Assembly: GCA_964443885.1 (NCBI GenBank)
Contig: CAYUES010000002.1
Coordinates: 1-48,586, forward strand
Direction: 5' to 3'
DNA length: 48,586 bases
Origin: an uncultured Pseudomonadales bacterium
Lineage (GTDB): Bacteria > Patescibacteriota > Microgenomatia > UBA1400 > PJMF01
In this document: in pieces, positions 1 through 40,546 of the stretch
Layout of the letters: every line of letters starts with the position of its first letter
How positions within the stretch are numbered: the first letter of the stretch is position 1
Position numbers and translations under genes: made by a program
The notes under the pieces: generated by a model
Database searches by the model: none
Seen by the model: the letters and a program-made list of their open reading frames with translations, nothing else
Told to the model about the DNA's origin: nothing

Positions 1-1285
1 CTGGATAAAAAGTGCTCTGAAAATCATTTGGTGACATCACAGAAGTTGGCAGCGCTGCTAATTGGCTTCGCAACATCGGCACCCATGAAGCATGATAGCG
101 GAAAAGATCTGGCCCATTATCTGAGTTCAGAGCATTCTGCAGACGCACCCGATAATCCTGGTGTGACTGCTTACTATACTTGATAGTTACATTAGGATTT
201 TTTGATTCGTAATCTTGAATAACTGAAGCCATCGTCTCGCTTGGTTCCCATAGTCCCCAGTACTCGAGAGTTACTTTGGCACCACCAGTTGTAGGCTGAC
301 TAGTTGTTCCTGTTCCGGTCGTTCCAGTTCCTCCTGGGTTAGCAGTTGAACCGGCGGAGTTGCCTCCCGTTGGAGTAGTACTAACACTCGTTGTTCCCGA
401 ACCTCCCAAACCTAAGAAGCGAAATGCCACGAAACCCAAAATTAAAAGTAACAGAACGCCACCACCTATAAATGGTAAAAATTTCATGAATGATTTCTTT
501 GGCTGTGCAAACTGAGGATCTTGAGGGTTTTGTGGATTCTTTGCTCCTTGTGGAGTAGCAGTCATCGTTGGGGCTGGCGCTAGCTTTCCAGCTCCCCCAC
601 CCATAGGGTTAGGTCCTTGAGCCGAAGCAGCAGCTCCTGAAGGCAAACGATTACTAGCCATTGAAGAAAGCGCCGTTAAAGTTTGTGGTGGTTGCTGAAT
701 TCGGACAGGTTGTTGTGGCGCACCAGGTGCAGAACTTTGAGTTGGTGCAGCCGGCGGCATTGCAGTGGCTGGCGGAACTGGCATACCAGCTCGAGCTTGA
801 GGTGCAGTTGGATTAGTCGGCATACCTGGAGCTGGACGAGGTGGCTGTGCTGGTGCTGGTTGACCAGTCGGGGCTGATGGTCTTTGCTGTGCGGCTGGAA
901 CAGATTGATTTTGTACTGGAGGAGTAGCTGGTCTAGGAGCTTGGGCGCCAGCACTTTGTGAAGGTGATGGGACTGGTTGGCCAGTCGGAGCGGCTGGTCT
1001 TTGTTGCGCTGCTGAAGTAGGTGGTGTGGCTGGACGAGGTGGCTGTGCTGGAGAACTGGTAGGTAAAGTAGGTCTAGTTGGCGAGGGCGCACCAGGTGCA
1101 GCTGCGCTCATTGGTGGAGTCGGTACTGTAGGTTTACTTTGTTGATTCTGTTGAGCTTGTTGTGTTTGCGGTGGCATTCCAGGAGTAGCTGATGATCGTG
1201 CAGGAGTAGATGCAGGTGCTTGATTTTGACCACTTGCAGCGGGTTTTACAGGAGGAGTAGCAGGTTTTGGTAATGGCGCGGGCAT
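1..1285 (-). CDS. ABC-type extracellular solute-binding protein (family-1-like). The 5' end is complete and the 3' end lies beyond the window. It has a long Pro/Gln/Ala-rich N-terminal region and one TM helix.
   Basis: Absent from the supplied ORF track because it has no in-window stop. Hand check: the frame with plus-strand triplets at 2-4, 5-7 and so on has no tta/cta/tca from 2 to 1282. The ATG is at 1285-1283 and an in-frame stop lies just upstream. Translation begins MPAPLPKPATPP. The TM helix is FLPFIGGGVLLLLILGFVAF. It is followed by KVTLEYWGLWEPSETMASVIQDYESKNPNVTIKYSKQSHQDYRVRLQNALNSDNGPDLFRYHASW, the usual N-lobe pattern of sugar-type SBPs. Confidence 0.6.
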   Translation of the reverse strand, partial: MPAPLPKPATPPVKPAASGQNQAPASTPARSSATPGMPPQTQQAQQNQQSKPTVPTPPMSAAAPGAPSPTRPTLPTSSPAQPPRPATPPTSAAQQRPAAPTGQPVPSPSQSAGAQAPRPATPPVQNQSVPAAQQRPSAPTGQPAPAQPPRPAPGMPTNPTAPQARAGMPVPPATAMPPAAPTQSSAPGAPQQPVRIQQPPQTLTALSSMASNRLPSGAAASAQGPNPMGGGAGKLAPAPTMTATPQGAKNPQNPQDPQFAQPKKSFMKFLPFIGGGVLLLLILGFVAFRFLGLGGSGTTSVSTTPTGGNSAGSTANPGGTGTTGTGTTSQPTTGGAKVTLEYWGLWEPSETMASVIQDYESKNPNVTIKYSKQSHQDYRVRLQNALNSDNGPDLFRYHASWVPMLRSQLAALPTSVMSPNDFQSTFYP

Positions 1286-1394: not shown

Positions 1395-3197
1395 ATGTCG
1401 GTTACTAACAAGTATTTTACTATTTTTTTCCCCAAAACTGCAAAGGCAACTCTGTATTCATTTGCTGCAGCTGGTTTTAGTTGTCTTATCGCTGGTATTT
1501 TACTCCTTCTTTACTTCCATGCCAAATCCCATTTACCGATGAATACTACTATTGGAGGTATTGACGTTGGCAACATGACGGCAAACGAAGCCAAAACCGT
1601 TTTAGAGAAAGAGTTTTCTAACCCACCTGAGCAGACAGTCTTGCTTCGGGTAGACGATATTACGGTGGCTTCCAGTTCATCAGAGCTTAAGGCTAAGTAT
1701 GATATTGATGGAGAAATCCTCCCCTTACTTGGCGTGCCTCGAGCGGATCACACTCGTACCAAATTACTTTTTGTCTTGCGTCGGTACTTTACCAATCATC
1801 AAAAAACACTCGACATTACGTATGACCCTGCTGCCGTGACCCAGTTTTTAGAAATCATGCAGAGCAAGGTGGATATTGCGAGTAAACCACCACAGATCCA
1901 ACTAGCTACTAGCAACAATCCAGCAACACTGACTGTTTTCCCCGGTGAAATGGGTCGCGCCATAGATACGGAAGAAACCAGAGCCTTAATTTCTCAAACG
2001 TACCGCTCTGGCCAGTATGAATTGCTAGCTCCAGTGGCCAGTACTGGCGCAGTATTGAGTGAGGTAGCGATTCCAGTCGCTGTGGATCGTGGTAAAAAAT
2101 TGGTTGGTAAATCAATTAGTTTCACCAGAGAAGGCATTCCATTTAGCGTTGGAGATACGGAGCTCGTGAGTTACTTGGTGATTCCAGAAGGAGTCGCGAA
2201 ACAACCTATTATAGATAGTTTGGAACGTTGGGAAACTCAGGTTAATCGCCCACCACAAGAACCTGAGTTTGAGTACGATGCAACGACACTGGCTGTTACA
2301 AAGTTTGTGCCACCACGTAATGGCTTAACATTAGATCGTGAAAAAACTGCCGACCTAATTACACAAGCTATTCAAGAGTTTGAGACCACAACTGATCCTG
2401 AGAAAAAAACTGTTGAGCAACCACTCCCTCTTGCTGAACAACCACCGCAAACAGCTCTCGCTGACCTCAATGACTTGGGCATCAAAGAACGGATTGGCTT
2501 TGGTGAAAGTTACTACGCGCACTCAATTCCCAATCGTATCTATAATGTAGCTCTTGCCACAAAACGCGTCTCGATGACGATCGTAAAGCCTGGCGAAGAG
2601 TACTCATTCAATAAACGAATTGGTGATGTTTCTGCTAGCACTGGCTATAAATCAGCCTATGTAATTCAAGGCAATCGTACGGTGCTGGGCGATGGCGGCG
2701 GCGTTTGTCAGGTGAGTACAACCTTGTTCCGTGCTGTTTTAAATGCCGGCTTAGATGTAACGCGCCGACTTCCTCATAGTTACCGGGTCAGTTACTACGA
2801 ACTCGATACCAAACCAGGCATTGATGCGACAGTTTATTCAGGTGAGACAGACTTTAGATTTCGTAACGACACCGATCAACACCTACTAGTGTATGGTGAA
2901 GCGGACAGCAAAAACTTATACATGTTCTTTGAGATTTACGGTATGTCTGATGGTCGAACTACCGAGATCGTGGACCACAAAACTTGGAACTTCCGCCCTG
3001 CTCCTCCCGCGCAGTACATTCCCGATCCGTCACTTCCACCTGGCAAAACAGTCCAAGTAGACTGGGCAGCCGCAGGAATTAGCGCTAGCTTCAAACATGT
3101 TATAAAAGATAAAGATGGCCAAGTTGTGAGCGAAAACACCTATACTTCCAACTACCGCCCTTGGTCTGCTAAGTATTTGCAAGGTGTGGCACAATAA
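1395..3197 (+). CDS. VanW family protein, membrane-anchored
   Basis: 600-aa ORF with an N-terminal TM helix (AAAGFSCLIAGILLLLYF). The VanW core motif reads GDGGGVCQVSTTLFRAVLNAGLDVTRRLPHSYRVSYYE...GIDATVY...DFRFRND. Confidence 0.8.
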   Translation: MSVTNKYFTIFFPKTAKATLYSFAAAGFSCLIAGILLLLYFHAKSHLPMNTTIGGIDVGNMTANEAKTVLEKEFSNPPEQTVLLRVDDITVASSSSELKAKYDIDGEILPLLGVPRADHTRTKLLFVLRRYFTNHQKTLDITYDPAAVTQFLEIMQSKVDIASKPPQIQLATSNNPATLTVFPGEMGRAIDTEETRALISQTYRSGQYELLAPVASTGAVLSEVAIPVAVDRGKKLVGKSISFTREGIPFSVGDTELVSYLVIPEGVAKQPIIDSLERWETQVNRPPQEPEFEYDATTLAVTKFVPPRNGLTLDREKTADLITQAIQEFETTTDPEKKTVEQPLPLAEQPPQTALADLNDLGIKERIGFGESYYAHSIPNRIYNVALATKRVSMTIVKPGEEYSFNKRIGDVSASTGYKSAYVIQGNRTVLGDGGGVCQVSTTLFRAVLNAGLDVTRRLPHSYRVSYYELDTKPGIDATVYSGETDFRFRNDTDQHLLVYGEADSKNLYMFFEIYGMSDGRTTEIVDHKTWNFRPAPPAQYIPDPSLPPGKTVQVDWAAAGISASFKHVIKDKDGQVVSENTYTSNYRPWSAKYLQGVAQ

Positions 3198-4470
3198 TTT
3201 ACAAAAAAACGCTGCTTCAATTTACAATATTAGATCTGCCAGGGCAAAACCACAAACAAACAGTTGTACGTATTTGAGCTATACTCAAACTATCGTGCGG
3301 TACAAACCACCCTCATTCTTTACTACATTCACCACATTTGTACTGTTGTTGATTTTTGTCGGAACTTTACTGATTGCGCCGTTCTTCGCCACCATCGCAT
3401 CTGCCAATAATTCTGCTGTAAAAATCATCTGCAAAAATAAGGCCGACTGCGAACAAGTCGGGGGTGCTACTCCGTTTTTTACTGCTGAAAACATGGTCCC
3501 TGGTCAGTCTGTTCAGAAATCTGTCCAAGTTCACAACCAACGTAAAAATGAAGGTTGTACCATTAAAATTAGAGGCACAGAAACTGCCAATGAACTCGAA
3601 CAAAACCTGAAGAACCAGCTTGTTTTGAACGTGCTCTATAACAGCCAAAAACTTGTCAGTTATGATCTAGCAACAGTACTTTCGACAACAACACCTTTGC
3701 CAATTGACACCCTCAACGCACAAACCAGTCGCGACTATGACTGGCAACTATACTTCAAAGACTCTGCACATAATTCGTATCAAGGCAGTAAAATTAACTT
3801 CGATTTACACCTGATCTTTACCTGTGATCCAAGTACGACAGAGCCAATTCCAACCCCGACACTCACGCCCTCACCTTCAGCCACTCCTCTGCCCGACTGT
3901 ACAATCAAACCACCGACTGAGAAACCAATCGTCACTATTGCTTCGCAAAAAAACCCAACCACGCTTTCAGTACAGTGGACGAGCGTTCCCACAGCTACCA
4001 ACTACAAACTTAGCTTCGCCACAACCGATACTAGTCGCCGCTACGAAAATACAAGCCTTGGAAACACTCAGCAACATTCAGTAACTGGTCTGCATCCACA
4101 AAAGGATTATTTTTTTGTAATTACTCCTTATCACTCTTGTGCTGCAGGGCCGTCATCAGATCCAGTCTTTATGAATCGAGATCCCACGCAAACGAAGCCT
4201 GTCGATGCCACAGATCAGCTTGAAGGTAGTGACAAAACCTCCCTAGATCCCCCTGGACAAGTACTTGGAGCACAGATCATTGCCACAGAGGGTGCTGACA
4301 TTAATCTTGACTCATCGGATAATAAACGATCTCTAGTTGGGCAGTTTTCGATACTTACTGGCGATGCCATCAATGCATCTGGGGTAGGTTTTACTGCGTT
4401 TTTGATTGCTGTAATAGTTCTTTTCATGCTTTTTAGATACAAAAAGATGCACAAAAAACCCACTTCCTGA
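3184..4470 (+). CDS. Cell-anchored TasA/camelysin-like protein with a Pro/Thr linker, an FN3 domain and a C-terminal TM anchor. The start codon is uncertain.
   Basis: No ATG lies near the 5' end. In-frame alternative starts are GTG 3184, TTG 3274 and GTG 3295. There is an N-terminal hydrophobic segment, FVLLLIFVGTLLIAPFFATIASA. Camelysin-like strands are present: FFTAENMVPGQSVQKSVQVHNQ and YQGSKINFDLHLIFTC. A PT-rich linker (TTEPIPTPTLTPSPSATPLP) is followed by an FN3-like stretch, LSVQWTSVPTATNYKLSF...VTGLHPQKDYFFVITPY. The C-terminus is GFTAFLIAVIVLFMLF followed by RYKKMHKK. Confidence 0.6.
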   Translation: MWHNNLQKNAASIYNIRSARAKPQTNSCTYLSYTQTIVRYKPPSFFTTFTTFVLLLIFVGTLLIAPFFATIASANNSAVKIICKNKADCEQVGGATPFFTAENMVPGQSVQKSVQVHNQRKNEGCTIKIRGTETANELEQNLKNQLVLNVLYNSQKLVSYDLATVLSTTTPLPIDTLNAQTSRDYDWQLYFKDSAHNSYQGSKINFDLHLIFTCDPSTTEPIPTPTLTPSPSATPLPDCTIKPPTEKPIVTIASQKNPTTLSVQWTSVPTATNYKLSFATTDTSRRYENTSLGNTQQHSVTGLHPQKDYFFVITPYHSCAAGPSSDPVFMNRDPTQTKPVDATDQLEGSDKTSLDPPGQVLGAQIIATEGADINLDSSDNKRSLVGQFSILTGDAINASGVGFTAFLIAVIVLFMLFRYKKMHKKPTS

Positions 4471-4717
4471 TCGCAATTGATAGCATTTATAGATGATTGT
4501 ATCCACTTGACGGCACCTTCCTTTATTCAGTATTGTTATTAGTGAAGCAATAATTTCATAATTATTACTAGAGCATACTGCGATTTATGACGTCACAAAT
4601 TATGAAAAATTAATTGATGGATCGTAATAATAAGTAGCTACTGGCCTGCAGAGATATATAGAGTGCGCAGAAAAACAACTGAATAAATAATAATATAAAC
4701 ACAGAAAGGTTTATACA

Positions 4718-5353
4718 ATGAAGAAAAAAGTCCTGCTCTTTTTAGTAGTGATTGGTGTATTTGTTGGTGGAGGCTACGCGCTAACCCAAGCTCTCTTCTC
4801 GGATACCGAGACCTCAGCGAGTAACACTATTGCTGCTGGAACTTTAGATATGACAGTTGATGGCGAGAACGGCACTGCCTTCGATAGTATTGCCGTCGAA
4901 AACGTCGGCGCAACAGGCACAGACAGTGGTGAAAAAGAATGGACGATCCGAAATGCCGGAACAGTTCCAGGCACACTTTCGTTTGGTGTCAACAGTGTGA
5001 CCAACACCGAAAATGGCTGTAATGAGCCAGAGCTCGTCACTGAGCCTGCTTGTGAAGCTGACAACGAAGGTGAACTTGGTGCCGCAACCACCGCTATCGT
5101 CAAGATTGATACCGACAGCGATGGCGACTATGACGAAGAAGATGCAATTGCGACTACTACGCTCGCAACTGCAAATCAAGGCGTCTTTGCTTCAAGTTGG
5201 ACTACCAACGCTGGTGTTGTTACTATCCCAGCCGGTGAAACAAAGAAAGTTAAGATGTTCTGGTCAAATGACCCAACTGCTTATGGCAATGAAATTCAAA
5301 GTGATGCCTTAGCATTTGAGGTTCAATTCAACCTGACCCAGGTAACTCCGTAA
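4718..5353 (+). CDS. TasA/camelysin-family secreted protein with a SipW-dependent-type signal peptide (candidate major fibre subunit)
   Basis: The N-terminus MKKKVLLFLVVIGVFVGGGYALTQALFSDTETSASNTIAAGTLDMTV is the classic SipW-cognate signal and mature start. The C-terminal strand is GNEIQSDALAFEVQFNLTQV. A GAAAGG Shine-Dalgarno-like motif lies 8 nt upstream and an intrinsic terminator follows the gene. Confidence 0.8.
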   Translation: MKKKVLLFLVVIGVFVGGGYALTQALFSDTETSASNTIAAGTLDMTVDGENGTAFDSIAVENVGATGTDSGEKEWTIRNAGTVPGTLSFGVNSVTNTENGCNEPELVTEPACEADNEGELGAATTAIVKIDTDSDGDYDEEDAIATTTLATANQGVFASSWTTNAGVVTIPAGETKKVKMFWSNDPTAYGNEIQSDALAFEVQFNLTQVTP

Positions 5354-5390
5354 GTATGAATACGGACGCGATTTAACAATGGACAGTCGT

Positions 5391-5420
5391 ACGGAGGGTG
5401 CAAACCCTCCGTATTGTTTT
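5391..5420 (+). terminator. Rho-independent terminator after the TasA-like gene
   Basis: acggaggg-tgcaaa-ccctccgt forms a perfect 8-bp GC-rich stem and is followed by attgtttt. Confidence 0.6.
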
Positions 5421-5471
5421 GCCACAGTAAATAAACTTACTAAGTAATCGCAGAACAAACTATTACAGCAT

Positions 5472-5981
5472 ATGCAGATACTTCTCAAAACTCTCTCTAT
5501 ACTATTTTGGACTGGCTACGGAGCCTTTATTATCCTCAGCTTTGTTATCAGCGCATCGAGTAGCAAACGTTCCAACCTACCGTTTCAAAGTTTTATTGTC
5601 CAAACAGCTTCAATGGAGCCCACCATCATGACTGGTGATGTCATCTTCATCAAACCACAAGAAAAGTACGCGTTACAAGACATCATTACCTTTACAAATG
5701 ATGAGAATCAGACAATTACCCATCGCATTATCGCAAGTAATGTTAGTACTGATAAAACTACGTTCACAACCCAAGGTGACAACAATACAACAGAAGATCC
5801 CAAACAAGTTGCAACTCAGCAAATTTTAGGAAAGTTTCAAGCCAAGATTCCAAAAGCTGGCTATGTACTGGTAAATGCTCAAAAGCCAACCAACCTCTTT
5901 TTACTCATCGCCATTCCGCTTGCTGTAATCATTGGCGGTGAAGTATTTAAGAAAAAAGACGAAAAACATGCTCAGAAATAA
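5472..5981 (+). CDS. Signal peptidase I, SipW/archaeal-ER type (S26B), copy 1
   Basis: 169 aa with N- and C-terminal TM helices. Catalytic-box motifs are QTASMEPTIMTGDVIFI, TITHRI and TQGDNNTTEDP. Confidence 0.85.
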   Translation: MQILLKTLSILFWTGYGAFIILSFVISASSSKRSNLPFQSFIVQTASMEPTIMTGDVIFIKPQEKYALQDIITFTNDENQTITHRIIASNVSTDKTTFTTQGDNNTTEDPKQVATQQILGKFQAKIPKAGYVLVNAQKPTNLFLLIAIPLAVIIGGEVFKKKDEKHAQK

Positions 5982-5983
5982 TT

Positions 5984-6565
5984 GTGAGAAAACAAGCGAC
6001 TCTCGGACTACTCGTTAAATCTCTGCTATTTATGATGGCTGTTTTTGCTGCGTATTCACAGTTCACCGATGCCGATCTCTTTGACCAAGAAGGCGTTTCT
6101 GGCAACTCATTTGTAGCCACCACTTTGGACTTCTCTACTCTGGATACCGCCAACCAAACCAACAAGACCTTGTTTTTTTCAGTCAACGGCATGGTGCCAA
6201 CAGGCTTCCAGATTGAGTCTGTCCGTCTTAAAAACTCAGGTAACCTCGAATTTCCGTACTCTGTCAGCGTTGCACAAACGGCTGGCTCTGCCCCACTCTG
6301 CCAGAACTTGGATCTGGTTGTGCTGCAGGAATGGACCCCAATTTATACGGGGAAGTTACTCGAGTTGCAGCTTGCAGGTGAACTTGCAGCACAAGAAAAC
6401 TGGGAAGACTTGGTGTTTGTGGTCAAGTTTAATAACACTGACGGCGCGCTCAAAAACCAGACCTGCTCGTTTATCTTCACGTTTACTACTGCCCTGACTG
6501 GCAACTCTTTTTCTGATACGGAAACTCTGGAAAATACCATTAGTACCGGAGCGTGGGCCGAGTAA
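5984..6565 (+). CDS. TasA/camelysin-like secreted protein (short paralogue, candidate minor subunit)
   Basis: The GTG start lies 2 nt after the sipW-like stop, suggesting translational coupling. The signal peptide plus AYSQFTDADLFDQEGVSGNSFVATTLDFS resembles the SipW-cognate pattern. FFSVNGMVPTGFQIESVRLKNSGNLEF matches the FF..NMVPG strand of the 3184 protein. Confidence 0.65.
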   Translation: MRKQATLGLLVKSLLFMMAVFAAYSQFTDADLFDQEGVSGNSFVATTLDFSTLDTANQTNKTLFFSVNGMVPTGFQIESVRLKNSGNLEFPYSVSVAQTAGSAPLCQNLDLVVLQEWTPIYTGKLLELQLAGELAAQENWEDLVFVVKFNNTDGALKNQTCSFIFTFTTALTGNSFSDTETLENTISTGAWAE

Positions 6566-6664
6566 AGAGTCGACGCAAGTTTGATGAAGTCTTGTGTAGC
6601 TTTGCAACGGCAGTATATGAGAAAATGAAAAGCGCAGCAACATTGAAGAAGTCGGAACTACTGT

Positions 6665-7312
6665 ATGTTAAAAAACTTGGGAATTCTAAAGAGTTTATTT
6701 TTGCTATCGCTCGTAGGGGTAATTGGTTTTATGGCTACCCAAGCGCTGTTTATTGATCGGGAAACCTCACAGGAGAGTAGTTTCGTCGTCGGAACTCTCG
6801 ATATGACCGTTGGTGGACCAGGCAGTGAACAAGCCGAAAGCATCCAAGTAAACGGCGTTGGCGCCCAGAATCTTGTATCGGGCGGCAAGTCTTGGACAAT
6901 TAATAATGTCGGTAGCTTACCGGGTAAGTTTTCATTTGAACTACAAAACATCAAAAATATTGAAAACGGCTGCAATGAACCAGAATCCCTCGAGGACACC
7001 AGTTGCGGCACCCCTGGAGATGGCCAAGGTGAGTTGGGCGCCGTAATCTTAACCACTATCAAAGTTACAGAGCCCAATCAAGCTGAACGAACGATTTTTT
7101 CTAGTAATTTAAGTACTGAAAATGCCGATGAGTACCAAACCTTTTGGAAGAACAATGCTGGCACTGTCACAATCCCGGCTGGCAAAAGTTTGATCCTCAC
7201 TATGGAGTGGTCGACTCAAAACAGTCAGTTTGGCAATGAAGTCCAGAGTGACAGCGTACTGTTTGATTTAGTATTCAATCTCAATCAAGTTTTACCAGGA
7301 CAAAATAACTAA
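6665..7312 (+). CDS. TasA/camelysin-family secreted protein, paralogue of 4718..5353
   Basis: The N-terminus is ...LVGVIGFMATQALFIDRETSQESSFVVGTLDMTV. It shares ENGCNEPE-x6-C, GELGA, NNAGTVTIPAG and GNEVQSDSVLFDLVFNLNQV blocks with the 4718 protein. Confidence 0.8.
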   Translation: MLKNLGILKSLFLLSLVGVIGFMATQALFIDRETSQESSFVVGTLDMTVGGPGSEQAESIQVNGVGAQNLVSGGKSWTINNVGSLPGKFSFELQNIKNIENGCNEPESLEDTSCGTPGDGQGELGAVILTTIKVTEPNQAERTIFSSNLSTENADEYQTFWKNNAGTVTIPAGKSLILTMEWSTQNSQFGNEVQSDSVLFDLVFNLNQVLPGQNN

Positions 7313-7376
7313 GGAGCTACTAGGCCAGGAACATACGCGAAACCGAGTTGTACTCTTGAACTGAGAAGCCACAATC

Positions 7377-7907
7377 ATGCCAACTGCCGCTGGGATTAAA
7401 ACATTCTTTTTTTACGTACTGATCACAGCTTTTTTTGCATTTCTCAGTTATCAACTAGTGTTGTGGTTTCGCCAGAATGTTTCTTGGCGCAGCTACGTCG
7501 TTCAGTCAGGTTCGATGGAACCAAGTATCATGACTGGCGACATGATCATCATCAAAAAGCAGGAAAAATACCAGAAAGCTGACGTCATTACCTTCAAAGA
7601 TGACAACGAACGAACGGTCACCCACCGGGTTACCGAGGTGGGTACGAGTCAGCCAATTACCTTGACGACCAAAGGTGATGCCAACGAAACCGCTGATGCT
7701 GGCACCATTAAACTCGAGCAAGTGATCGGCAAAGTCGTCTACGTCATTCCAAAGTTTGGGTATGTGGTGCAGTTTATCAAGACTCCTTGGGGATTTATCT
7801 TGACGATTTTGGTACCAGCTATTCTGATTTTGTATGATGAATCGAAGTCTGTTTGGGCAGACTCACAAGGTGGCCGCAAAGGCAGGAGACGGCGAATTGA
7901 GCAGTAA
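7377..7907 (+). CDS. Signal peptidase I, SipW/archaeal-ER type (S26B), copy 2
   Basis: 176 aa. Motifs are QSGSMEPSIMTGDMIII, TVTHRV and TKGDANETAD. There are terminal TM helices and a basic C-terminal tail. Confidence 0.85.
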   Translation: MPTAAGIKTFFFYVLITAFFAFLSYQLVLWFRQNVSWRSYVVQSGSMEPSIMTGDMIIIKKQEKYQKADVITFKDDNERTVTHRVTEVGTSQPITLTTKGDANETADAGTIKLEQVIGKVVYVIPKFGYVVQFIKTPWGFILTILVPAILILYDESKSVWADSQGGRKGRRRRIEQ

Positions 7908-7937: not shown

Positions 7938-8690
7938 TTATTTCTTATTTTTTAAGTAGTCACCCATACCCTCAACTGCGCGCAAGATTTCCAGTGGCAC
8001 GGCAAAGACGACCGTATTTGATTGATCTGAACTAATGTCATTGATCGAGTTGAGGGTGCGCAAGTGCAACGCACCCGGAGTTTGTGCCATCGTTGCAGCT
8101 GCTTGAGCCAAGTTTTGTGCAGCAATAACTTCACCTTCAGAGTTAATGATAGTGGCACGCTTTTCGCGCTCTGCTTCAGCGGTTTTTGCCATTGTCCGAA
8201 CCATACTTTCTGGCAACTCAATGTCTTTGAGCTCGACGGTCTCGACTGTGACACCCCACTGCTCTGTTGCCACGTCTACGATCTGCAAGATTTGAGCAGC
8301 AATTTTTTCTCGGTTTGAAAGGAGTTCATCTAGGGTTGCTTCGCCCGCAATCCGACGCATCGTGGTTTGCGCCAGTTGTGAGACCGCCCAGATTACATTT
8401 TCCACTTCATTAATAGCGCTCGCCGCATCGATAATCTTGAAGTAAATCACTGCATTCATCTTGCAGGAAACGTTGTCTTTGGTGATCGTTTCTTGTTTTG
8501 GCACGTCCATTGCTCGAGTACGGATATCCACTTTAGTCATGCTTTGAAAGATTGGCAGGACAACTCTCCAGCCTGGACCGACGATCCCGGTGAAGCGCCC
8601 CATCGTGTACATGACGCCGCGCTCGTATTGGTTGACCTGGCGTAGGGAAATAAGAATGATAAAAACGATAATTCCAAGGAAGATTAGCAT
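7938..8690 (-). CDS. SPFH/band-7 (stomatin/slipin-like) membrane protein
   Basis: 250 aa with an N-terminal TM helix. It reads QYERGVMYTMGRF...GPGW..VLPIFQ...VDIRT, with an Ala/Glu-rich coiled C-terminal half typical of SPFH proteins. Confidence 0.85.
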   Translation of the reverse strand: MLIFLGIIVFIILISLRQVNQYERGVMYTMGRFTGIVGPGWRVVLPIFQSMTKVDIRTRAMDVPKQETITKDNVSCKMNAVIYFKIIDAASAINEVENVIWAVSQLAQTTMRRIAGEATLDELLSNREKIAAQILQIVDVATEQWGVTVETVELKDIELPESMVRTMAKTAEAEREKRATIINSEGEVIAAQNLAQAAATMAQTPGALHLRTLNSINDISSDQSNTVVFAVPLEILRAVEGMGDYLKNKK

Positions 8691-13938: not shown

Positions 13939-16900
13939 TTATTTTGCTTGAGTAAATTTCACCCCAAACAGGCCGGTTTCATCATTATTTCTAGTGAAAA
14001 CAACGCCGTCAGCGTCGACTGTTGCTTGAGGAGCGATCAGTTGTGGTTGCAAATTATCAGCCGGTAATATTCTCAAAAGGTATGGTGTATCACCATTTCC
14101 AGGTTGTTCATTATTAAAGAAGATGTACGAGAAGGCATCACCAGTAGGGGAGTGGGGCACAGAGTACTTCAAAGCGACTTGTTTACTAGACTTTATCGGA
14201 ACTTCGATCTGAGCACTTACTACCGACTTGCCATTTTCTTGAGCGACCGAGACTTGAGAAGCTGGTAGTTTTATACCGCCAACCTCGATACCAGAAATGA
14301 CGGCGGTTGTTGGAACGTAAAAACGTATGTAATTTTTATAGGCACCTTTTGGCCAGGCATCGAGTTGAGCAATGTTTTCATAAGAAATTATATGTGTATG
14401 GTCTGCTTGAGTAGGGGAGACTACCACAGTGTGATCAACACTACGTTTTAAGTAGTAATTAGCTTTATTGACGCCGACATTGGCTTCAACTTGCATAAAG
14501 TGGTCAACAAAACACTGATCACCCGAGAACTCAGGTGGGCAGCGAGGAACTTGTAAACTACCAGACCAACCCAAGTTCTGTAGCAGTTGTTGTTCATCAC
14601 TATTGGCAAATGAAACTAACATTGCTTTTGACTGTGTATTTGCTTGAAAAGCAGAGAGCAGAGGAGCGACTTTATCACCTGGCAAAGCAATGATTTTCTC
14701 GAGTAATTTTGAAAACAACACTTTACGGTAATCGTGATTTTTCTCGGTTTCAACCAAGACAACTTCCGAGTGAAACTCCAGACGTTCAAGTAGGTTTTTG
14801 TGAGTAATGACTTCATTATAATCTGGAAGTTCTAGCGGGCCAGTTGCTTCCAAAATGCGCTGTAAGCCATATAAATCAACAGTCACCACGCCGTCGATGG
14901 TGGTATTCAGCCCTTTTTCCAAGAACCACTTGATCGTAGCTGAACTGGTTGGAAAGTCAGGACTCCAGTTGGCGTTATAAAATGCAAAGGATTTTTCCCC
15001 AGTAGCTAGAGCAATATCTGCTGGAGCAGCCACTTCACCAGGGATTTTTTTATCCAGCTCATAACTGGTGTAGAGACTGTGATCTACCAAGTAGCCATTT
15101 TCAAACGTCAGAATCGCCACTGCATCCATAAAACCACCGGTTGGGCGGAGTTCTTGATTATTCTGCAGAATGAAGGCATACGTACGTTTTCCTTCTAATC
15201 CAAAGAGAGAAGGGAGGAGTGGGGCGAGTTGTTGCGTAATCGCAGCGCGTTTTTGGAGTGTTTCCAGATTAGATCTGTATGACTTTAGGATTTTTTCACT
15301 AGCGTCACCTTCTTCAAAAGATATTTTGTCCAATGATTCTTCAACTGCTACAGCTGCTTCATAGGTTGTGAGCGTTTCAGCGTTCATGTTTTGGGCTAGT
15401 TCACTGAGATTACCAGTACTTGATCCTACAATCACGGCGAAGAGGTTTTTCAGCGTTTGAGAATCTTGTGAGGAATGGAGGACGTCGACATGACTACTAA
15501 CTTCCACTAGGCGAGCCGCTTCATCTACTTGAGGGAGTTCAAAAACAGCTTGATATCCAGCTACTTGGGTCGAAACTATTTGTGTCAAGAATGCTACTCT
15601 GCTTAATTGGCTTGCTGATACTTCACTTGGTGTAGAAGCCAAAACCGTCATTACTTGGCTTTTTAAGAGTGAGGTAGTTGTCATGAAGATCACCGTTAAA
15701 AGCAGAACTAAGCCCCCCATGCTGATGAAGGTCAGCCCGCCGTAGAAGAGAGTTGTCTTCTTTTTAGACTTTTTAGTCAATGTTTTGCGCGTTTTTGCCA
15801 AGGAGGTGACGCGCTCGTTCTTACTTTCCACCCTAGAGTGCGTAAAAATGCGTTGAATTTCCGATGAGACATTAAACTCTTCTGGAGCAGCTTCTTTAAT
15901 TAGTTCTTCCCAGGCAGCGGTGGTGTTTTTTATAGAATCATCTTCAGGTAATTGTGTGGAAGTTTCTTGGATCGTAACTTCAGTAATCGTCGTTTCAGTG
16001 AGCTGTCGTTTCTGGGCAGGAACTTCAGGTGGTGATTGCCAAAAATCGGGTTGTATTGGTTTTTGAAGCTCGAGTTCGGTAGGAGTTTCTTCAAGAATCG
16101 AGTAACTTACCGAAGGTGTTTCCCAGTACTCAGTACTTGGTTCATTTTCCGCAGTAGTTTCGATGTAAAACGAAACATTTTCAGGATTGAAAAATGGCTC
16201 CATTTCTGGTGAAGGCAGCTGTCTGGAGTACCAAAGGGCTGTGCTTTCTTCGTCTTCTAAAACATCGACGTCCGCCACTGAGAATGGGATCGTTGGCAAC
16301 TCGGCAGCTTCAACTCGCTGTAGTCCTACTTGAGAAAAATAGTAGTTTTCATACTGGCGAATTACTTTCTCTAAAATTGAGTTAGAAAACCGAGTTCGCC
16401 CCTTTATCGAAACACTAGATCGATGCGGGTGCAATATTTGAGCTACCGCTTTTTGGCAGAAAGCGGGCAAAGTATGTGAGGTGATTAGGATGTTCGGGGC
16501 AAAAATAAACCCGCGCTGAATCGATTGGCAACACAAATCAAAAATACTAACTTTCCCGGGTGGCAAGAGCACATCTTGACCAAAAATAAACGAGGACTGC
16601 GGTAAAACTTCGTTACAAAGAGCAATCAGATTTTGTTGAGATCGTTGATACTGCGACAAGTACGGAACTTCACCTTCAACTTGTTCTTCACAGCCACTTA
16701 TTACGGGTATAACAATATATAATTTAGATTGATAATTCTGCAAATTTTCAAGTAGGGAGGTAATTTGTTCGGTGTAATGAGCTGGTGAAAGACATATAAC
16801 AATTTTGTACGCAGTTTCTAAGTAGGCTTGCGATTCGGGCAAAGGAAGATCAAATGGCGTGGCCGTCACAACCTCCAGGCCTTTTTCGGCACAGCTTTGC

Positions 16901-17013
16901 GCAACATATTGCGTAAAAGATCCAACAGTATCCACTAAAACTACGGTGGGTATTTCTTCAAAAAATTCGGTGGTGAGCTGATTCGAAAGCATACAATCCT
17001 TAAGCCCTACCAT
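13939..17013 (-). CDS. DUF4012 domain-containing large membrane protein
   Basis: 1024 aa with a central TM helix (LFYGGLTFISMGGLVLLLTVIFM). The DUF4012 signature is KRTYAFILQNNQELRPTGGFMDAVAILTFENGYL. An alternative start is ATG 16992, which has an AAGGA Shine-Dalgarno sequence. Confidence 0.75.
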   Translation of the reverse strand: MVGLKDCMLSNQLTTEFFEEIPTVVLVDTVGSFTQYVAQSCAEKGLEVVTATPFDLPLPESQAYLETAYKIVICLSPAHYTEQITSLLENLQNYQSKLYIVIPVISGCEEQVEGEVPYLSQYQRSQQNLIALCNEVLPQSSFIFGQDVLLPPGKVSIFDLCCQSIQRGFIFAPNILITSHTLPAFCQKAVAQILHPHRSSVSIKGRTRFSNSILEKVIRQYENYYFSQVGLQRVEAAELPTIPFSVADVDVLEDEESTALWYSRQLPSPEMEPFFNPENVSFYIETTAENEPSTEYWETPSVSYSILEETPTELELQKPIQPDFWQSPPEVPAQKRQLTETTITEVTIQETSTQLPEDDSIKNTTAAWEELIKEAAPEEFNVSSEIQRIFTHSRVESKNERVTSLAKTRKTLTKKSKKKTTLFYGGLTFISMGGLVLLLTVIFMTTTSLLKSQVMTVLASTPSEVSASQLSRVAFLTQIVSTQVAGYQAVFELPQVDEAARLVEVSSHVDVLHSSQDSQTLKNLFAVIVGSSTGNLSELAQNMNAETLTTYEAAVAVEESLDKISFEEGDASEKILKSYRSNLETLQKRAAITQQLAPLLPSLFGLEGKRTYAFILQNNQELRPTGGFMDAVAILTFENGYLVDHSLYTSYELDKKIPGEVAAPADIALATGEKSFAFYNANWSPDFPTSSATIKWFLEKGLNTTIDGVVTVDLYGLQRILEATGPLELPDYNEVITHKNLLERLEFHSEVVLVETEKNHDYRKVLFSKLLEKIIALPGDKVAPLLSAFQANTQSKAMLVSFANSDEQQLLQNLGWSGSLQVPRCPPEFSGDQCFVDHFMQVEANVGVNKANYYLKRSVDHTVVVSPTQADHTHIISYENIAQLDAWPKGAYKNYIRFYVPTTAVISGIEVGGIKLPASQVSVAQENGKSVVSAQIEVPIKSSKQVALKYSVPHSPTGDAFSYIFFNNEQPGNGDTPYLLRILPADNLQPQLIAPQATVDADGVVFTRNNDETGLFGVKFTQAK

Positions 17014-20908: not shown

Positions 20909-22702
20909 TTACTTCGAAATCGCGGTAAGTGTCATCTGAAGTGCCGAGACGTCTTGGCGTAAATCGTCATTAAGAATTATTTCCTTTTCGATCTTTCTGA
21001 CAGCGTGTAAAACACTGGTGTGGTCGCGACTGGCAAACCAACGGCCAATTTCAGTCAATGGTAGTGAAAGCTCTTTTTTGAGTAGATACATCGCAATATG
21101 ACGCGCTGTAACAAGGTTTTTCAAACGACTCGAACCCTTTAGTGAGGACTGTTTGACGTGATAGTGATTGGCAACGGTTTTGAGGACGTCACCAGGCGAA
21201 ACTTTAATCCGTGGCCGCTTGACTTCAACCTCAACCTGGAGGATTTCTTCGATCAATTCTTGGTTCAATTCCTTCTTTTTGAGCTCAATTTCCGAGCGAA
21301 TACTGGTGATAATGCCTTCGATTTTGCGGGCACTATCGACTTTGGAAGCAACTATTTTGGCCAAATCGATAGTGATTGGAATTTGTTGCGCCTTGGCTTT
21401 GACCAAGACAATCGCGGTCCGCAGTTCAAACGAAGGTTGTTGAATATCGATCATTAAACCAGCCTCAAACCGAGATCGAAGTCTGTCTTCCAAAAGGGTG
21501 ATTTCATGGGGTGGCCGATCCGAAGTTAAGACGATTTGACTAAACTGTTTGGTGAGTGCATTGAAGGTATGAAAAAACTCTTCCTGGACCGCATTTTTGC
21601 CCGCAATGAACTGAATATCGTCGATCAGTAGCACATTGGCAGTGCGATATCGTTCTTTGAAGTGACTGGCTTTCTTAGTCTGGATAGCGTGGACGATGTC
21701 ATTTGTAAACTCTTCGCCAGTACAGTAGATGATCTTGGCGTTTGGATTGGCGCGCAAGATGTTATGACCAATCGCGTGCATCAAGTGGGTTTTGCCGACA
21801 CCCACCCCGCCATAGAAAAAGAGGGGATTGTAGGACTGGCCAGGTCTGTTGGAGACAGCGGTGGCGGCGGCGTGTGCCATTTCGTTGGTAGTAGAAACTG
21901 CAAAGGTGGCAAAAATGTAGTCGGTGCGCAGGCCAATCCCGCGCGCCTGCATCTGGTAACGTTCTTCTGCGGCATTGAGGATATTACTTTCAGAAAATAA
22001 ATCCTCCACTCGTGGTGACTGAGAACTTGGGTTTGCCCGTCCAGGCATTGGCGCCGCAAATGAAGTCATGTTTTGAGCCATCTCGTTGAGCGCCTGCTGG
22101 TTGCCACCGTTGGGGCGGCTCAGATTGGAGTCGCTAGAAGTTGGGTTTGAAGTTTGATTGGTGTTTTGGCTGGAGTTGGAACTAGAGTCGCGCTGGTTAG
22201 AACCCTGTGAGCGCATCACCTCACCACTGCCGTCAGTAAAGTTCTTGAGCGAAAAGCCTTCGAAGTTATTTTGTGATTGCGGTTGCTGCTGCTGCTCTTC
22301 TGGCAAATTCGAATTTTTGTTATAAGTATTTGCAGGTTGGCTTGAGGATTGGCCAAGTTGTGGCTGCATGACGTGGGCGAACCCCAACGGCTCTTTGTAG
22401 CGACTCGGCTTTGATTTGTGTGGATCGCCGACTTGATACTGAACTTCGCAGGTACGTTGTAAAACGGTGTCCAAGGCCTGCTTTACCTGGATATGAAGGT
22501 TCTTTTTTAGGTTTGTAGAGTGAAACGCAGTCGGACTAGTAATCGTGACGACCGCCCGCGCGTCATCGGGAAACCCAATCTCGGTAATTGGATTAGAAAG
22601 AATCCAGGTGTTGTAGACAGCAGGGCTCATGTTTTGCTGCAAAAGCCCACAATATTGTTGCCAAATCACTGAAACTTCTTGATGGGTGAGTGGTGTCTGC
22701 AT
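20909..22702 (-). CDS. dnaA: Chromosomal replication initiator DnaA, with a long Q/S/N-rich domain II linker
   Basis: The AAA+ Walker A motif is GGVGVGKTHL and Walker B is LLIDDIQF. The C-terminal DNA-binding domain is ARHIAMYLLKKELSLPLTEIGRWFASRDHTSVLHAVRKIE. The track start at 22720 is a TTG, so ATG 22702 (MQTPLTHQE) is preferred. Confidence 0.93.
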   Translation of the reverse strand: MQTPLTHQEVSVIWQQYCGLLQQNMSPAVYNTWILSNPITEIGFPDDARAVVTITSPTAFHSTNLKKNLHIQVKQALDTVLQRTCEVQYQVGDPHKSKPSRYKEPLGFAHVMQPQLGQSSSQPANTYNKNSNLPEEQQQQPQSQNNFEGFSLKNFTDGSGEVMRSQGSNQRDSSSNSSQNTNQTSNPTSSDSNLSRPNGGNQQALNEMAQNMTSFAAPMPGRANPSSQSPRVEDLFSESNILNAAEERYQMQARGIGLRTDYIFATFAVSTTNEMAHAAATAVSNRPGQSYNPLFFYGGVGVGKTHLMHAIGHNILRANPNAKIIYCTGEEFTNDIVHAIQTKKASHFKERYRTANVLLIDDIQFIAGKNAVQEEFFHTFNALTKQFSQIVLTSDRPPHEITLLEDRLRSRFEAGLMIDIQQPSFELRTAIVLVKAKAQQIPITIDLAKIVASKVDSARKIEGIITSIRSEIELKKKELNQELIEEILQVEVEVKRPRIKVSPGDVLKTVANHYHVKQSSLKGSSRLKNLVTARHIAMYLLKKELSLPLTEIGRWFASRDHTSVLHAVRKIEKEIILNDDLRQDVSALQMTLTAISK

Positions 22703-22813
22703 ACGTAAACTCCAGGCCAAAGCCTGTTTTAATCAATAAAAACTGATACAGAAAATAATAGTAAGGCACTGTAGTTATACACAGTGTTTTGCACACAATG
22801 CAAGCAGGAAAAG

Positions 22814-29108: not shown

Positions 29109-29441
29109 TTACGGTCTTCCACAACTTCTGGTTGGTGTGCCTACATTTGCTGTAAAGCCATTTGGAACGATATTGCGAATACCCAAACCAGGATCATCAG
29201 GAGCATTTCGTTGATTTATTAATTCATAGTGTAAGTGGGGACCAGTACTATTGCCAGTACTTCCTACATAGCCAATTACCTCTCCAGCGGCCGCGCCCAC
29301 GCCACTTTTACCTTTAAACTTCGGTGCTACGCCACTTAAATGAGCAAAGAAAACGGTATGCTTAGTCGCATCTCCGGGTATTTGAAACTCCAAAGCCATC
29401 AAGTTTCCATACCCGGTGGTGTCCCAACCGCGATCCAGGAA
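29109..29441 (-). CDS. Second half of an M23 (LytM) peptidase domain, in a different reading frame from the 1568-aa ORF (frameshifted continuation)
   Basis: The frame of track ORF 29109..29576 encodes GWDTTGYGNLMALEF...FFAHLS...GEVIGYVGSTGNSTGPHLHYELI, which are the M23 GYGN and HxH motifs. The matching HxxxD motif lies at the end of the 29362..34068 ORF. Confidence 0.6.
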   Translation of the reverse strand, partial: FLDRGWDTTGYGNLMALEFQIPGDATKHTVFFAHLSGVAPKFKGKSGVGAAAGEVIGYVGSTGNSTGPHLHYELINQRNAPDDPGLGIRNIVPNGFTANVGTPTRSCGRP

Positions 29442-39900: not shown

Positions 39901-40546
39901 AGTTCCAGTTCAAGGTCGTATGAAGTCAATGCGATTTGGGGAGCAAAATGATGGTCGAATTTTAACATTAGATGATGTAAAAGATATTTATGGCAATCGA
40001 TTATATCCAGTAATGGATCTAGAGAGAGTTGGTCAATACTTTGCGACATTTAGTGGTTTTGGTAAAAATGCACTGACTGTTGTTGATAAAGTATTAATGA
40101 CTGATATTAAGGCTTGGGATAGTAGCACCCTGCTGACTGAGCTGCGTAAAGATGCGAAGTATGCTGGTATTTTCTTCCCAGTTGTTGGTAAAGAAATTGA
40201 AGAAAAAGGTGGTGAAAAAATTATTCTGCACCATAAAGACTCAAAGGGTAATCATGAGGAGACAACTGTCTTTTTAGATTTCATGGATAGATTTGCTAGT
40301 TACATTGTGCTGTTAAAGGCACTGATGTTGGTAATGCCCGCTCAATTCTATGAAGGTGGCTCTAAGAGCTTACATTCAGTTGAATCGTACTTACAGAGTG
40401 AACGAGGGCGTAATGTTATTAGTGAGCACACACAACATGTTATCTACAAAATCATTGAGAAACTGTTTGGTGCCAAAGTCTTCCGCCGCGAACTAGGTGA
40501 AGAAATACTCAAAGAGTTTTCCAAGTTTGCTCAGTTCCAAGTTTAA
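36908..40546 (+). CDS. Large hypothetical protein (1212 aa, orphan; the N-terminal half looks helical or coiled-coil)
   Basis: Uninterrupted 3.6-kb ORF with no TM helix, signal peptide or recognisable catalytic motif. A terminator hairpin lies downstream. Confidence 0.6.
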   Translation: MAGPENNPNPNNQDRRVNQARPFDATQVASYIQEIGSGLDAAAQALEVGNHGAAQEALDRAMDLFNWVRVNYGVTNPGERIAIPGNYLVNRESIILKIKAAKLKEEAQIRTVITALEQGNQQDIQDLIIYYRDTNNQQGLLNLILAVPNNSRNTVNSILISLGMAAPGLEQAEPEVEAPRGMEFDAALQELATFLANLDDERTLRGDAAVNLDLDAYIVRMRESLGNWSPEQRREILNIVRQIRNALAQPLTAEVPTRRQPEVQGNQEITQLEPFVQLQNQITEYTRLLDESARSSNLANFDPRRDRTPTAANPDEQLPAEIPLAELQRQLQFCIKILPERSADILLNAQIQKLQDTLFAKAKNTVNRMKKHAENIDKNAHDEWIASSENVQFASNVTALEEATLDDSTLDADITALQNLSTEITAADRALPPQLSLAERTQLADQFEDEDFDFLSQNQRKTFTVLQQRIEKEIARRNARKGELTSRTDRELEFRNKIDDVNTKLAIAKEAAFSIDTETDQVTISFKPVRDSLRELEGLLLPGLEAELNEIRRNIDTGEFYQRSKAFFAAHESIESIEKGASAVSADAEKVIKNRIFVVMEGLIASMKQYGSPEAIVKEHEQHLKVLKEQNGAWLSVSFIWGDGGKAEFLYGNEQGSRKITPHYNTSDHGMTGGTVRDLINGGTELKGLPGCNALLHQRRRYVRKDVARAIGTTVLEDGDVTQSTVPGNSEVVAVDYPETAGAWIYDVLDQYFEMTKSDFDGGFLPISDKTATPGGKNFEPSSSAFETVTKNGMTIEIARNVLIMDIVDPDTGVVAHERYVVPKSVVEGGKDATSIIHKNHNAVIDYILNLETQRAAKLGLSKPRFDRNFVRRTFRAYLLSTWNHFALASSTVEGLSCTNTYAHLWPQYAVKERDQGVARYNPLSTVFIFGYKNFSPWQLFGKNIATEVEKVLRSNDAYDDYEYLLHSFISLADTSTRPKKKHQTVFSPPLRIISAGEVPVQGRMKSMRFGEQNDGRILTLDDVKDIYGNRLYPVMDLERVGQYFATFSGFGKNALTVVDKVLMTDIKAWDSSTLLTELRKDAKYAGIFFPVVGKEIEEKGGEKIILHHKDSKGNHEETTVFLDFMDRFASYIVLLKALMLVMPAQFYEGGSKSLHSVESYLQSERGRNVISEHTQHVIYKIIEKLFGAKVFRRELGEEILKEFSKFAQFQV

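Follow-up and report, generated by a model that had tools for sequence, protein, structure and literature searches.

The question raised by a six-gene locus near the start of a 48,586-nucleotide (nt) stretch of DNA, contig CAYUES010000002.1 of assembly GCA_964443885.1 (the whole stretch is referred to below as the window), is whether a bacterium of the candidate phyla radiation (CPR, Patescibacteria) makes a surface fibre of the TasA type and, if so, how the chain would be started and ended. In the TasA fibre, the donor strand (mature residues 28-38) directly follows the SipW site and completes the sheet of the next subunit (PMC9674648). A TasA subunit releases its own donor strand only once its groove has been filled, and the N-terminus of TapA, AFHDI, which mimics the AFNDI of TasA, was proposed to supply the first strand (PMC9674648). 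Solid-state nuclear magnetic resonance placed the TasA donor strand, D31-S41, antiparallel to A230-N220, the last core strand, and TapA's immunoglobulin (Ig) fold is complete already, so that TapA is expected to act at initiation only (PMC10151520).

A preliminary description of the locus had proposed that six consecutive genes on the plus strand encode four TasA-like secreted proteins and two S26B signal peptidases of the SipW or endoplasmic reticulum (ER) type in a CPR-type genome. Six consecutive, co-directional open reading frames (ORFs) are present exactly as proposed (Table 1), in the order anchor-like gene, subunit A, SipW1, short subunit, subunit B and SipW2, with gaps of 247, 118, 2, 99 and 64 nt. 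The family matches and the named relatives, which are Patescibacteria, agree with the assignment to such a genome. The evidence for four TasA-like proteins differs among them: for A it is the fold, for B the close paralogy to A, and for the short protein and the N-terminal domain (N-domain) of the anchor the homology seen between profiles; A and B were shown to be TasA-fold proteins, and the short protein and the anchor N-domain to be divergent homologues of the same domain. A TasA-like fold was looked for and found, and the Ser and His residues of the peptidases are conserved.

The reading towards which we lean, with somewhat better than even confidence, is that the locus encodes a TasA-superfamily filament of the cell surface in a Patescibacteria (Microgenomates-type) bacterium, whose subunits join by donor-strand exchange, with a self-complemented starter or tip, a shaft of A and B, and a membrane terminator.

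Subunits A and B and the second donor-like strand of the short protein

Subunit A scored 30.4 bits with Pfam PF12389 (camelysin/TasA, Peptidase_M73), for which the gathering score is 22.5; of the 196 profile positions, the match takes in 19-192. An AlphaFold2 monomer model of A, built with 60 homologues, had a mean predicted local distance difference test (pLDDT) score of 81. The top three matches in a Foldseek search with this model were all TasA, the monomer structures 5OF2 and 5OF1 and the fibre structure 8AUR, with a probability of 1.00, a template modelling (TM) score of about 0.45 and an identity of about 13%. Subunit B scored 18.1 bits with PF12389, under the gathering score, and is 42% identical to A over its full length, as expected of the paralogous subunits that had been proposed. 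A sequence search of the PDB with the A and short profiles gave nothing at E values up to 10.

The SipW-cognate-like N-termini described for A and B, LFSDTETSASNTIAAGTLDMTV and LFIDRETSQESSFVVGTLDMTV, are both present, and the motif A-[LFY]-F-x-D-x-E...N..F..GTLD is visibly conserved among the 60 homologues of A. The NCBIfam model of the SipW-cognate signal and N-terminal region, TIGR04088, gave 14.0 bits (E 0.04) with A, under its cut-off of 19, and no match with B. The two subunits also share the terminal strand GNEIQSD...F..FNL.QV, and conservation within the A family is highest in the donor-strand motif and in the last core strand. The ENGCNEPE-x6-C loop common to A and B was found as well. 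It forms part of a family-specific insertion, N-x-ENGCNEPE...C...GELG, in which N, E and G are invariant and the two cysteines near-invariant; C101 and C112 of A are at least 90% conserved among the 60 homologues. The loop is helical in the model of A and has no counterpart in the short and anchor domains, where the hhalign alignment shows a gap. A loop stapled by a disulfide, a metal site and a contact between fibres are all conceivable roles for it.

The short protein had been taken for a small TasA-like subunit. Its place in the family stands, but it is not just a small subunit, since a second donor-like strand at its C-terminus had been overlooked. The protein consists of a SipW-type signal, an N-terminal donor-like strand, a minimal TasA-like core and this extra C-terminal strand. 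Related loci, 79 in all, were retrieved with a tasA-like profile in a scan of one genome per GTDB species; ORFs were called in all of them and classified with hidden Markov models (HMMs) of the four protein types, and the hhalign alignments were rebuilt from these loci with 73 short, 73 major and 12 anchor sequences. The short and major families then aligned with a probability of 94.7% (E 6e-8), residues 7-169 of the short protein falling on residues 2-206 of the major subunit; a shallow alignment of 20 short sequences gave 58%. Residue 169, where the alignment stops, lies opposite the last core strand of A, so residues 170-193 are an addition. No Pfam or NCBIfam family matched the short protein save for a weak TIGR04088 match, and a Pfam scan of the short protein and of the isolated anchor N-domain gave nothing at E values up to 10.

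A BLAST comparison among the six proteins aligned this addition, FSDTETLENTISTGAWAE, to A's N-terminal region, LFSDTETSASNTIAAGTLDM, with 62% identity over 21 residues. The C-terminal segment is conserved in 20/20 close homologues of the short protein, and a looser motif, G-[FI]-x-[DA]-x-[ER]-..-N-..-SG-x-W, is found at the extreme C-terminus across 74 short proteins. In the AlphaFold2 monomer model of the short protein (pLDDT 77), residues 176-188 form a strand that begins four residues past strand 160-171 and lies within blocks of mean pLDDT 74 and 89. The pLDDT of the N-terminal donor-like regions of A and the short protein was 41-55, and in the short protein 41-51.

The C-terminal strand varies together with the donor strands of the same locus. 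At two aligned positions, 19 loci have D..E and 21 loci have A..R in each of three segments, namely the N-termini of the major and the short subunit and the C-terminus of the short subunit. A mixed state occurs in one locus only, L033, where the major donor strand has A..R and both short strands have D..E/D..N; the two ends of the short protein are closer to each other there than to the major subunit. Compared within a locus over a fixed register of 15 positions, the short C-terminal strand and the major donor strand shared 4.74 identities, as against 3.68 when the loci were shuffled; this value was reached in 0/5000 permutations, and in 4/5000 when shuffling was confined to loci of the same state, in a test that ignores phylogeny. 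A control block of the short protein gave 1.43 identities with the major donor strand and no locus effect. Recognition by SipW was considered as the source of the co-variation; it could constrain both N-terminal motifs and was rejected for the short C-terminal strand, which has no membrane h-region anywhere near it.

Longer relatives place the strand within the module. When 1.84 billion representatives were scanned in full by HMMER with the profile of the short family, 628 proteins scored E ≤1e-3, of which 254 had E ≤1e-10. Among the best 150 representatives, 42 are 281-1077 residues long, and most of these long forms have the short module at the N-terminus, followed by 86-809 more residues. 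The sequence G[FL]xDxExxxNxxxxGxW stands at the end of the module, now internal, in at least 27 of the 42; because it is internal in these relatives, the C-terminal strand belongs to the module and is not a free tail. A lamin-tail domain (PF00932) follows the module in 10/10 long forms scanned (in the range P0220-P0297), some of which also have fn3. The short module thus appears to be the N-terminal foot of larger proteins, as would be expected of a tip subunit, and the short protein of the window is a minimal form without a passenger domain. Homology to TapA was not found for the short protein, its relative by hhalign being the TasA-like subunit instead. With a donor-like N-terminus and an already complete fold, it may nevertheless be a functional analogue of TapA.

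The anchor-like protein, the signal peptidases and the layout of the locus

All of the parts ascribed to the first gene, a P/T-rich linker, an fn3 domain, a C-terminal transmembrane helix and a basic tail, were found. The ORF that begins at 3184 exists, but its start needs correction; the called database protein, P0136 (391 residues), and the alignments of homologues begin at GTG 3295, so this is probably the real start, which also ends the overlap with the upstream VanW-like gene. The anchor N-domain aligned with the short family at 96.6% (E 6e-10) and with the major family at 88.9% (E 2e-6); the shallow anchor alignment, of 4 sequences, gave a probability below 1%. The alignments with the short and major families both begin past the donor strand, and the cysteine-containing sequence IICKNKADCE occupies the place where the donor motif would be. 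Because the likeness to the subunits starts after the donor strand, the anchor appears to have a groove but nothing to donate, which would be the build of a chain terminator. The fn3 domain, the transmembrane helix and the basic tail would fix it in the membrane and leave the TasA-like domain on the outside.

The identification of two S26B peptidases was likewise upheld. Both scored above the cut-off of TIGR02228, the NCBIfam archaeal-type signal peptidase I (SipW1, 95.6 bits; SipW2, 103.1 bits; cut-off 51.85), and below the cut-off of 190 of the Bacillus SipW equivalog NF046067 (94.3 and 102.3 bits). Judged by these profiles, they resemble SipW, lie outside the Bacillus equivalog and are members of the archaeal-type S26B family. 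The two are 43% identical, in both the Ser lies in an SMEP motif, the His in THR and the Asp in GDN, and SipW1 has transmembrane segments at its N- and C-terminus. The three residues, which we take to be catalytic, in place of a Ser/Lys dyad of the bacterial kind, on the strength of published SipW mutagenesis, are retained in 72/72 first copies and 51-52/54 second copies across the related loci. Because they are kept in nearly all copies, the first and the second sipW both look active. Copies within the same locus are about 31% identical. The positional classes of sipW were concordant among nearest neighbours in 67/68 and 44/50 cases, a comparison by which single and repeated duplication are not separable. 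That each peptidase serves one kind of N-terminus (A[LFY]F.. or TDAD..) is a guess.

The coupling of the short gene to SipW1 holds in the window and across the family: the SipW1 stop and the GTG of the short gene are 2 nt apart, and the median gap in 69 loci is also 2 nt. The order tasA-like, sipW, short is found in about 74 of the 79 loci, and a second sipW lies 3' of the short gene in 54 of 74. Subunit B stands between the short gene and sipW2 in only about 16 loci, those closest to the window, and an anchor-like gene occurs in about 15 of the 79, directly upstream in 11 and downstream or further off in the rest. The locus had been called a duplicated cassette, and two subunits and two peptidases are indeed there. 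The syntenic core, however, is tasA-like, sipW, short and usually sipW2, and a simple tandem duplication of a subunit and peptidase cassette does not account for it, because B and the anchor are confined to few loci. As the gene orders read, the locus is an old four-gene core to which B and the anchor were added in the lineage of the window. None of the recurrent neighbouring families looked at (f1, f2, f3, f4, f5, f6, f7 and f11) is TasA-like, and none is found in more than 13 loci.

The word-indexed search returned 115 homologues of A, of which those with names belong to Pacebacteria, Woesebacteria, Shapirobacteria or the 'Patescibacteria group'. The informative titles among the related loci are Microgenomates, Pacebacteria, Woesebacteria, Shapirobacteria, Roizmanbacteria, Levybacteria, Moranbacteria and Saccharibacteria; the loci with such names are thus all from Patescibacteria, most of them of the Microgenomates type. 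Existing NCBI and JGI labels on the relatives include 'SipW-dependent-type signal peptide-containing protein', 'TasA family protein' and 'M73 family metallopeptidase'. Some loci (L001, L003 and many 'TPA_asm uncultured Gammaproteobacteria/Pseudomonadales') were deposited under non-CPR names, for example Methylococcaceae and Limisphaerales; these are probably mis-binned or default-labelled metagenome-assembled genomes, and it is conceivable that an epibiont was binned together with its host.

A strong terminator-like hairpin had been noted after subunit A only. It has an 11-bp stem (6 GC, about -21 kcal/mol) with a weak T tail (TTGTTTTG) and is the strongest terminator-like site within 1-10 kb; no comparable hairpin was found 3' of the other genes of the locus, nor 3' of sipW or short across the loci. 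A hairpin of -15 kcal/mol or below follows the first tasA-like gene in 75% of 57 loci (median -21.4), as compared with 16% of 187 other tandem intergenic regions at the same threshold (median -6.5; Mann-Whitney p 4e-14). Since the stems differ between lineages, structure rather than sequence is kept. The hairpin may terminate, attenuate or stabilise the upstream transcript, and each of these would favour A over the accessory proteins.

Proposed assembly and its alternatives

If the locus encodes a filament, the subunits would be exported by Sec; no twin-arginine motif is visible. Cleavage by SipW1, SipW2 or both would follow sites of small residues, TQA in A and B and TDA in the short protein. 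The N-termini freed in this way, LFSDTE... and DLFDQE..., would be equivalent to the TasA donor strand. The acceptor groove of the short protein would be filled in cis by its extra C-terminal strand, hairpinned onto the last core strand; because of this hairpin, the extra strand would sit where a donor strand sits and run in the same direction. As a consequence of cis closure, the short protein's N-terminal donor strand would be permanently free. By inserting it into the first A, the short protein would release the donor strand of A and start the chain, as TapA is proposed to do, and would then cap the distal end; where the module carries lamin-tail or other domains, as in relatives, it would be a tip adhesin. 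A would polymerise head to tail, with B as a second shaft or an adaptor subunit, and the hairpin after gene A would give an excess of A transcript relative to the accessory genes. The donor-less anchor would accept the last donor strand, end the chain and hold the fibre through its fn3 stalk, transmembrane helix and basic tail. More speculatively, the donor strand could be tethered to the membrane until SipW cuts, so that cleavage hands the fibre to the next subunit and growth proceeds from the base.

Fibre formation and surface location are inferred here. Like the tapA-sipW-tasA operon of Bacillus subtilis, the locus would combine 1) a jelly-roll or β-sandwich subunit whose N-terminal donor strand directly follows a SipW-type signal peptide, 2) a dedicated ER/archaeal-type signal peptidase in the operon and 3) a minor partner with a complete fold and a donor-like N-terminus, here the putative starter. 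It differs in subunit identity (about 13%), gene order, the presence of two peptidases and the CPR host. Where TapA has an Ig domain, the starter would have a TasA-like domain that its additional C-terminal strand closes, and the locus adds a candidate membrane-anchored TasA-like terminator with fn3 and the possibly cysteine-stapled ENGCNEPE loop of A and B.

For the haloarchaeal tat-fimbriae (tafi), a layout of tip, adaptor, shaft, transmembrane anchor and peptidase was proposed, in which TafF was modelled as the membrane anchor (PMC11821415). The same four-part logic is proposed here as for TafC (tip), TafE (adaptor), TafA (shaft), TafF (anchor) and TafD (peptidase). The anchor N-terminus resembles the subunits and would accept the last donor strand, its C-terminus is membrane-spanning and an S26 peptidase lies in the locus, a likeness that applies to the window's subclade only; as with TafC, tip proteins carry extra domains, here in relatives of the short protein. 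In contrast to the twin-arginine translocation (Tat) signals of tafi, the N-termini here (MKKKVLLFLVV..., MRKQATLGLLV... and MLKNLGILKS...) have no RR motif, and TafD has four transmembrane segments and a partner, TafG. A self-capping C-terminal strand is not described for tafi, and the likeness is one of layout, not of a sequence comparison. The system would work like the TapA/TasA and tafi models, while belonging neither to the TapA family nor to the Tat-dependent tafi.

The archaeal fibres of the TasA superfamily, the AbpA bundling pili and AbpX, are likewise jelly-rolls polymerised by donor-strand complementation, as would be the case here, and a TIGR02228-type peptidase adjoins abpX; unlike the peptidases here, it has ten transmembrane helices. 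In the construct sc-AbpX, the donor strand was relocated to the C-terminus via a four-glycine loop, and a self-complemented monomer was crystallised (bioRxiv 10.64898/2026.01.04.697558). That construct is artificial and without a free N-terminal donor strand, whereas the short protein keeps both strands. Chaperone-usher pili (Fim/Pap) share donor-strand exchange and specialised tip, shaft and terminator subunits. In pap, an mRNA hairpin 3' of the major pilin gene gives excess pilin. The chaperone-usher proteins are unrelated, however, there is no chaperone or usher here, and the cell is monoderm. The polarity would also be opposite, with a tip that lacks an open groove and a base that lacks a donor strand.

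Of the other explanations, the one that survives best, though we think it rather unlikely, is that A and B form extracellular matrix fibres like those of Bacillus subtilis, released from the cell and nucleated by the short protein, and that the anchor is a separate surface protein that shares the domain. TasA itself makes matrix fibres, the anchor is absent from about 64 of the 79 loci though the core operon is intact, and 247 nt separate the anchor gene from gene A. In 11 loci of the window's subclade, however, the anchor gene is directly upstream on the same strand, the tafi show the same arrangement, and the N-domain is homologous to the subunits yet has no donor strand, as a terminator would be expected to be built.

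The second alternative concerns the short protein, which instead of being self-capped could donate its C-terminal strand, like its N-terminal one, in trans and so act as a two-armed adaptor, a chaperone or a cross-linker. Likeness to the major donor strand and co-variation with it, as seen for this strand, would also be shown by a strand that binds the groove of the major subunit, and strands that can be exchanged tend to appear folded back in cis in AlphaFold monomer models. The 4 residues between it and the last core strand nevertheless favour a hairpin, insertion elsewhere would be awkward for a strand that is internal and followed by large domains in many relatives, and the two ends of the short protein agree even in L033, where the major subunit differs. 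Use in trans is therefore doubtful. It is least probable, and would surprise us, that the proteins stay monomeric, secreted or at the surface, as proteases of the camelysin kind or as adhesins, and do no more than require a signal peptidase of their own: the family goes by the name of M73 metallopeptidase in Pfam and NCBI, and a polymer of these proteins has not been observed, but the best-conserved segments form the TasA fibre interface, and the conserved self-capped partner and the excess-A hairpin fit a polymer. The M73 metalloprotease reading in particular was rejected, as the sequences contain no HExxH or other metalloprotease motif.

Several observations weigh against the anchored filament. 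The structure predictions are all of monomers, the polymerisation of A and B is a proposal, and the need for two peptidases is left unexplained by a fibre. Anchoring is not family-wide, as only about 15 of the 79 loci have the anchor gene, in some of them in a downstream position. The T tract of the hairpin is weak, and terminator-like sites as a class were not enriched in the region (8 found, 7.7 expected). As regards the short protein, the best Foldseek matches of its model were generic β-sandwiches (TM score 0.3-0.45) and TasA was not among the top 50; in favour of self-complementation, the same search also listed, with low scores, chaperone-usher pilins engineered to be self-complemented, among them CsuA/B (6FM5), FimA extended at its C-terminus (6S09) and CfaB fusions (3F84). 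TIGR04088 touched residues 175-191 weakly (E 0.09). When an HMM of the major donor strand, built across the family, was run against all ORFs of the loci with the true N-termini masked, the short C-termini were not recovered at E ≤0.01; the likeness of the strands is accordingly supported only by the fixed-register identities with their permutation test and by the weak TIGR04088 match. Finally, the switch from D..E to A..R follows one deep clade split, so that few independent events underlie it.

PF12389 proteins in Patescibacteria had already been noted in a survey (PMC9245690). A search of the paper library used here found no description of the operon, of the short subunit or of a TasA-type fibre in CPR bacteria; the experimental papers found on CPR surface appendages deal with type IV pili. 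To our knowledge, no Microgenomates have been cultured. A conserved TasA-type operon would be a concrete second candidate for a CPR appendage, with an assembly order from starter or tip to shaft to membrane terminator. A wider proposal, which we regard as tentative and would not expect to hold in every part, is that the short protein is a natural, permanently self-complemented, chaperone-free initiator and distal cap that sets the polarity and in relatives forms the foot of lamin-tail tip adhesins; together with the donor-less terminator and with cleavage at the membrane by the two SipW peptidases, it would define a base-grown, anchored pilus that is not of type IV, is widespread in Microgenomates-type CPR bacteria and is a candidate organelle for attaching to hosts or surfaces. 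If so, the short protein would be the natural counterpart of the engineered self-complemented constructs and an answer other than TapA to the supply of the first donor strand, and the co-varying strand motifs would be direct targets for mutagenesis. Most of the parts belong to known families and the layout of tafi is similar, which makes the proposal an extension of known biology rather than a new principle.

Genomic surroundings

The features of the locus and its neighbours are collected in Table 1. The window probably spans the replication origin region; it contains a DnaA gene, and the cumulative GC skew has its minimum near 12-14 kb. The VirB4/TraG-type ATPase and the very large ORFs beside it may belong to a type IV secretion system of the monoderm type, which Patescibacteria are reported to have (PMC12102498). 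An Rfam scan of the window matched no RNA family.

Table 1. Positions of the fibre locus, its parts and neighbouring genes in the window
Feature	Position (nt)	Residues (aa)	Strand	Basis or remark
VanW / PG_binding_4 / G5-like protein	1395-3197	600 aa	+	directly upstream of anchor gene
Anchor-like gene	3184-4470 as ORF; likely start GTG 3295	428 aa	+	ORF list
Anchor, signal/h-region, ends AxA		45-74	+	sequence
Anchor, TasA-like domain without donor strand	3406-3828	about 75-215	+	hhalign
Anchor, P/T-rich linker		216-248	+	composition
Anchor, fn3 domain		253-329	+	28.5 bits, cut-off 25
Anchor, C-terminal transmembrane (hydrophobic) helix	4381-4434	400-417	+	transmembrane prediction; then basic tail RYKKMHKK
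Subunit A gene, presumed major shaft subunit	4718-5353	211 aa	+	ORF list, PF12389
A, predicted donor strand LFSDTETSASNTIAAGTLDMTV	4793-4858	26-47	+	directly after SipW-type signal peptide
A, ENGCNEPE..C loop	5009-5053		+	family-specific insertion
A, last core strand	5285-5344		+	
Hairpin, terminator-like or attenuator, 3' of gene A	5389-5414		+	11-bp stem, about -21 kcal/mol
SipW1 gene, S26B signal peptidase I	5472-5981	169 aa	+	TIGR02228
SipW1, putative catalytic residues		Ser47, His84, Asp103	+	motif positions
Short subunit gene, GTG start	5984-6565	193 aa	+	hhalign to major family
Short, N-terminal donor-like strand	6062-6136	27-51	+	motif
Short, C-terminal donor-mimic strand FSDTETLENTISTGAWAE	6509-6562	176-193	+	similarity to A N-terminus
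Subunit B gene, paralogue of A	6665-7312	215 aa	+	42% identity to A
B, predicted donor strand	6746-6811		+	N-terminal motif
B, ENGCNEPE..C loop	6962-7006		+	family-specific insertion
SipW2 gene, second S26B signal peptidase	7377-7907	176 aa	+	TIGR02228
SipW2, putative catalytic residues		Ser46, His83, Asp101	+	motif positions
SPFH/Band 7 protein, convergent with SipW2	7938-8690		-	domain match
DUF4012 protein	13939-17013	1024 aa	-	domain match
DnaA gene	20909-22720		-	Bac_DnaA, 219 bits; about 13 kb from fibre locus
VirB4/TraG-type P-loop ATPase	22814-24985		-	domain match
Very large ORFs without Pfam match	29362-34068; 36908-40546; 43611-47270	1212-1568 aa	-; +; -	beside VirB4/TraG-type ATPase

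An ORF of 580-600 residues also precedes the anchor gene on the same strand in two related loci (L001 and L004), a likeness to the VanW-like gene of the window in size and position. In another subclade (L055 and L065-L074), proteins with a lamin-tail domain, a signal peptide and a C-terminal transmembrane helix lie directly upstream of the tasA-like gene; the locus of the window has no lamin-tail domain. In L075, an ORF of 1172 residues (1920-5438, plus strand) matches the SipW profile and also contains fn3, Big_13-like and lamin-tail domains, and could be a fusion or run-through of several genes. Near the start of the window, at 676-1092, overlapping ORFs on both strands have highly repetitive translations rich in H, Q and L, which suggests a low-complexity or repeat region.

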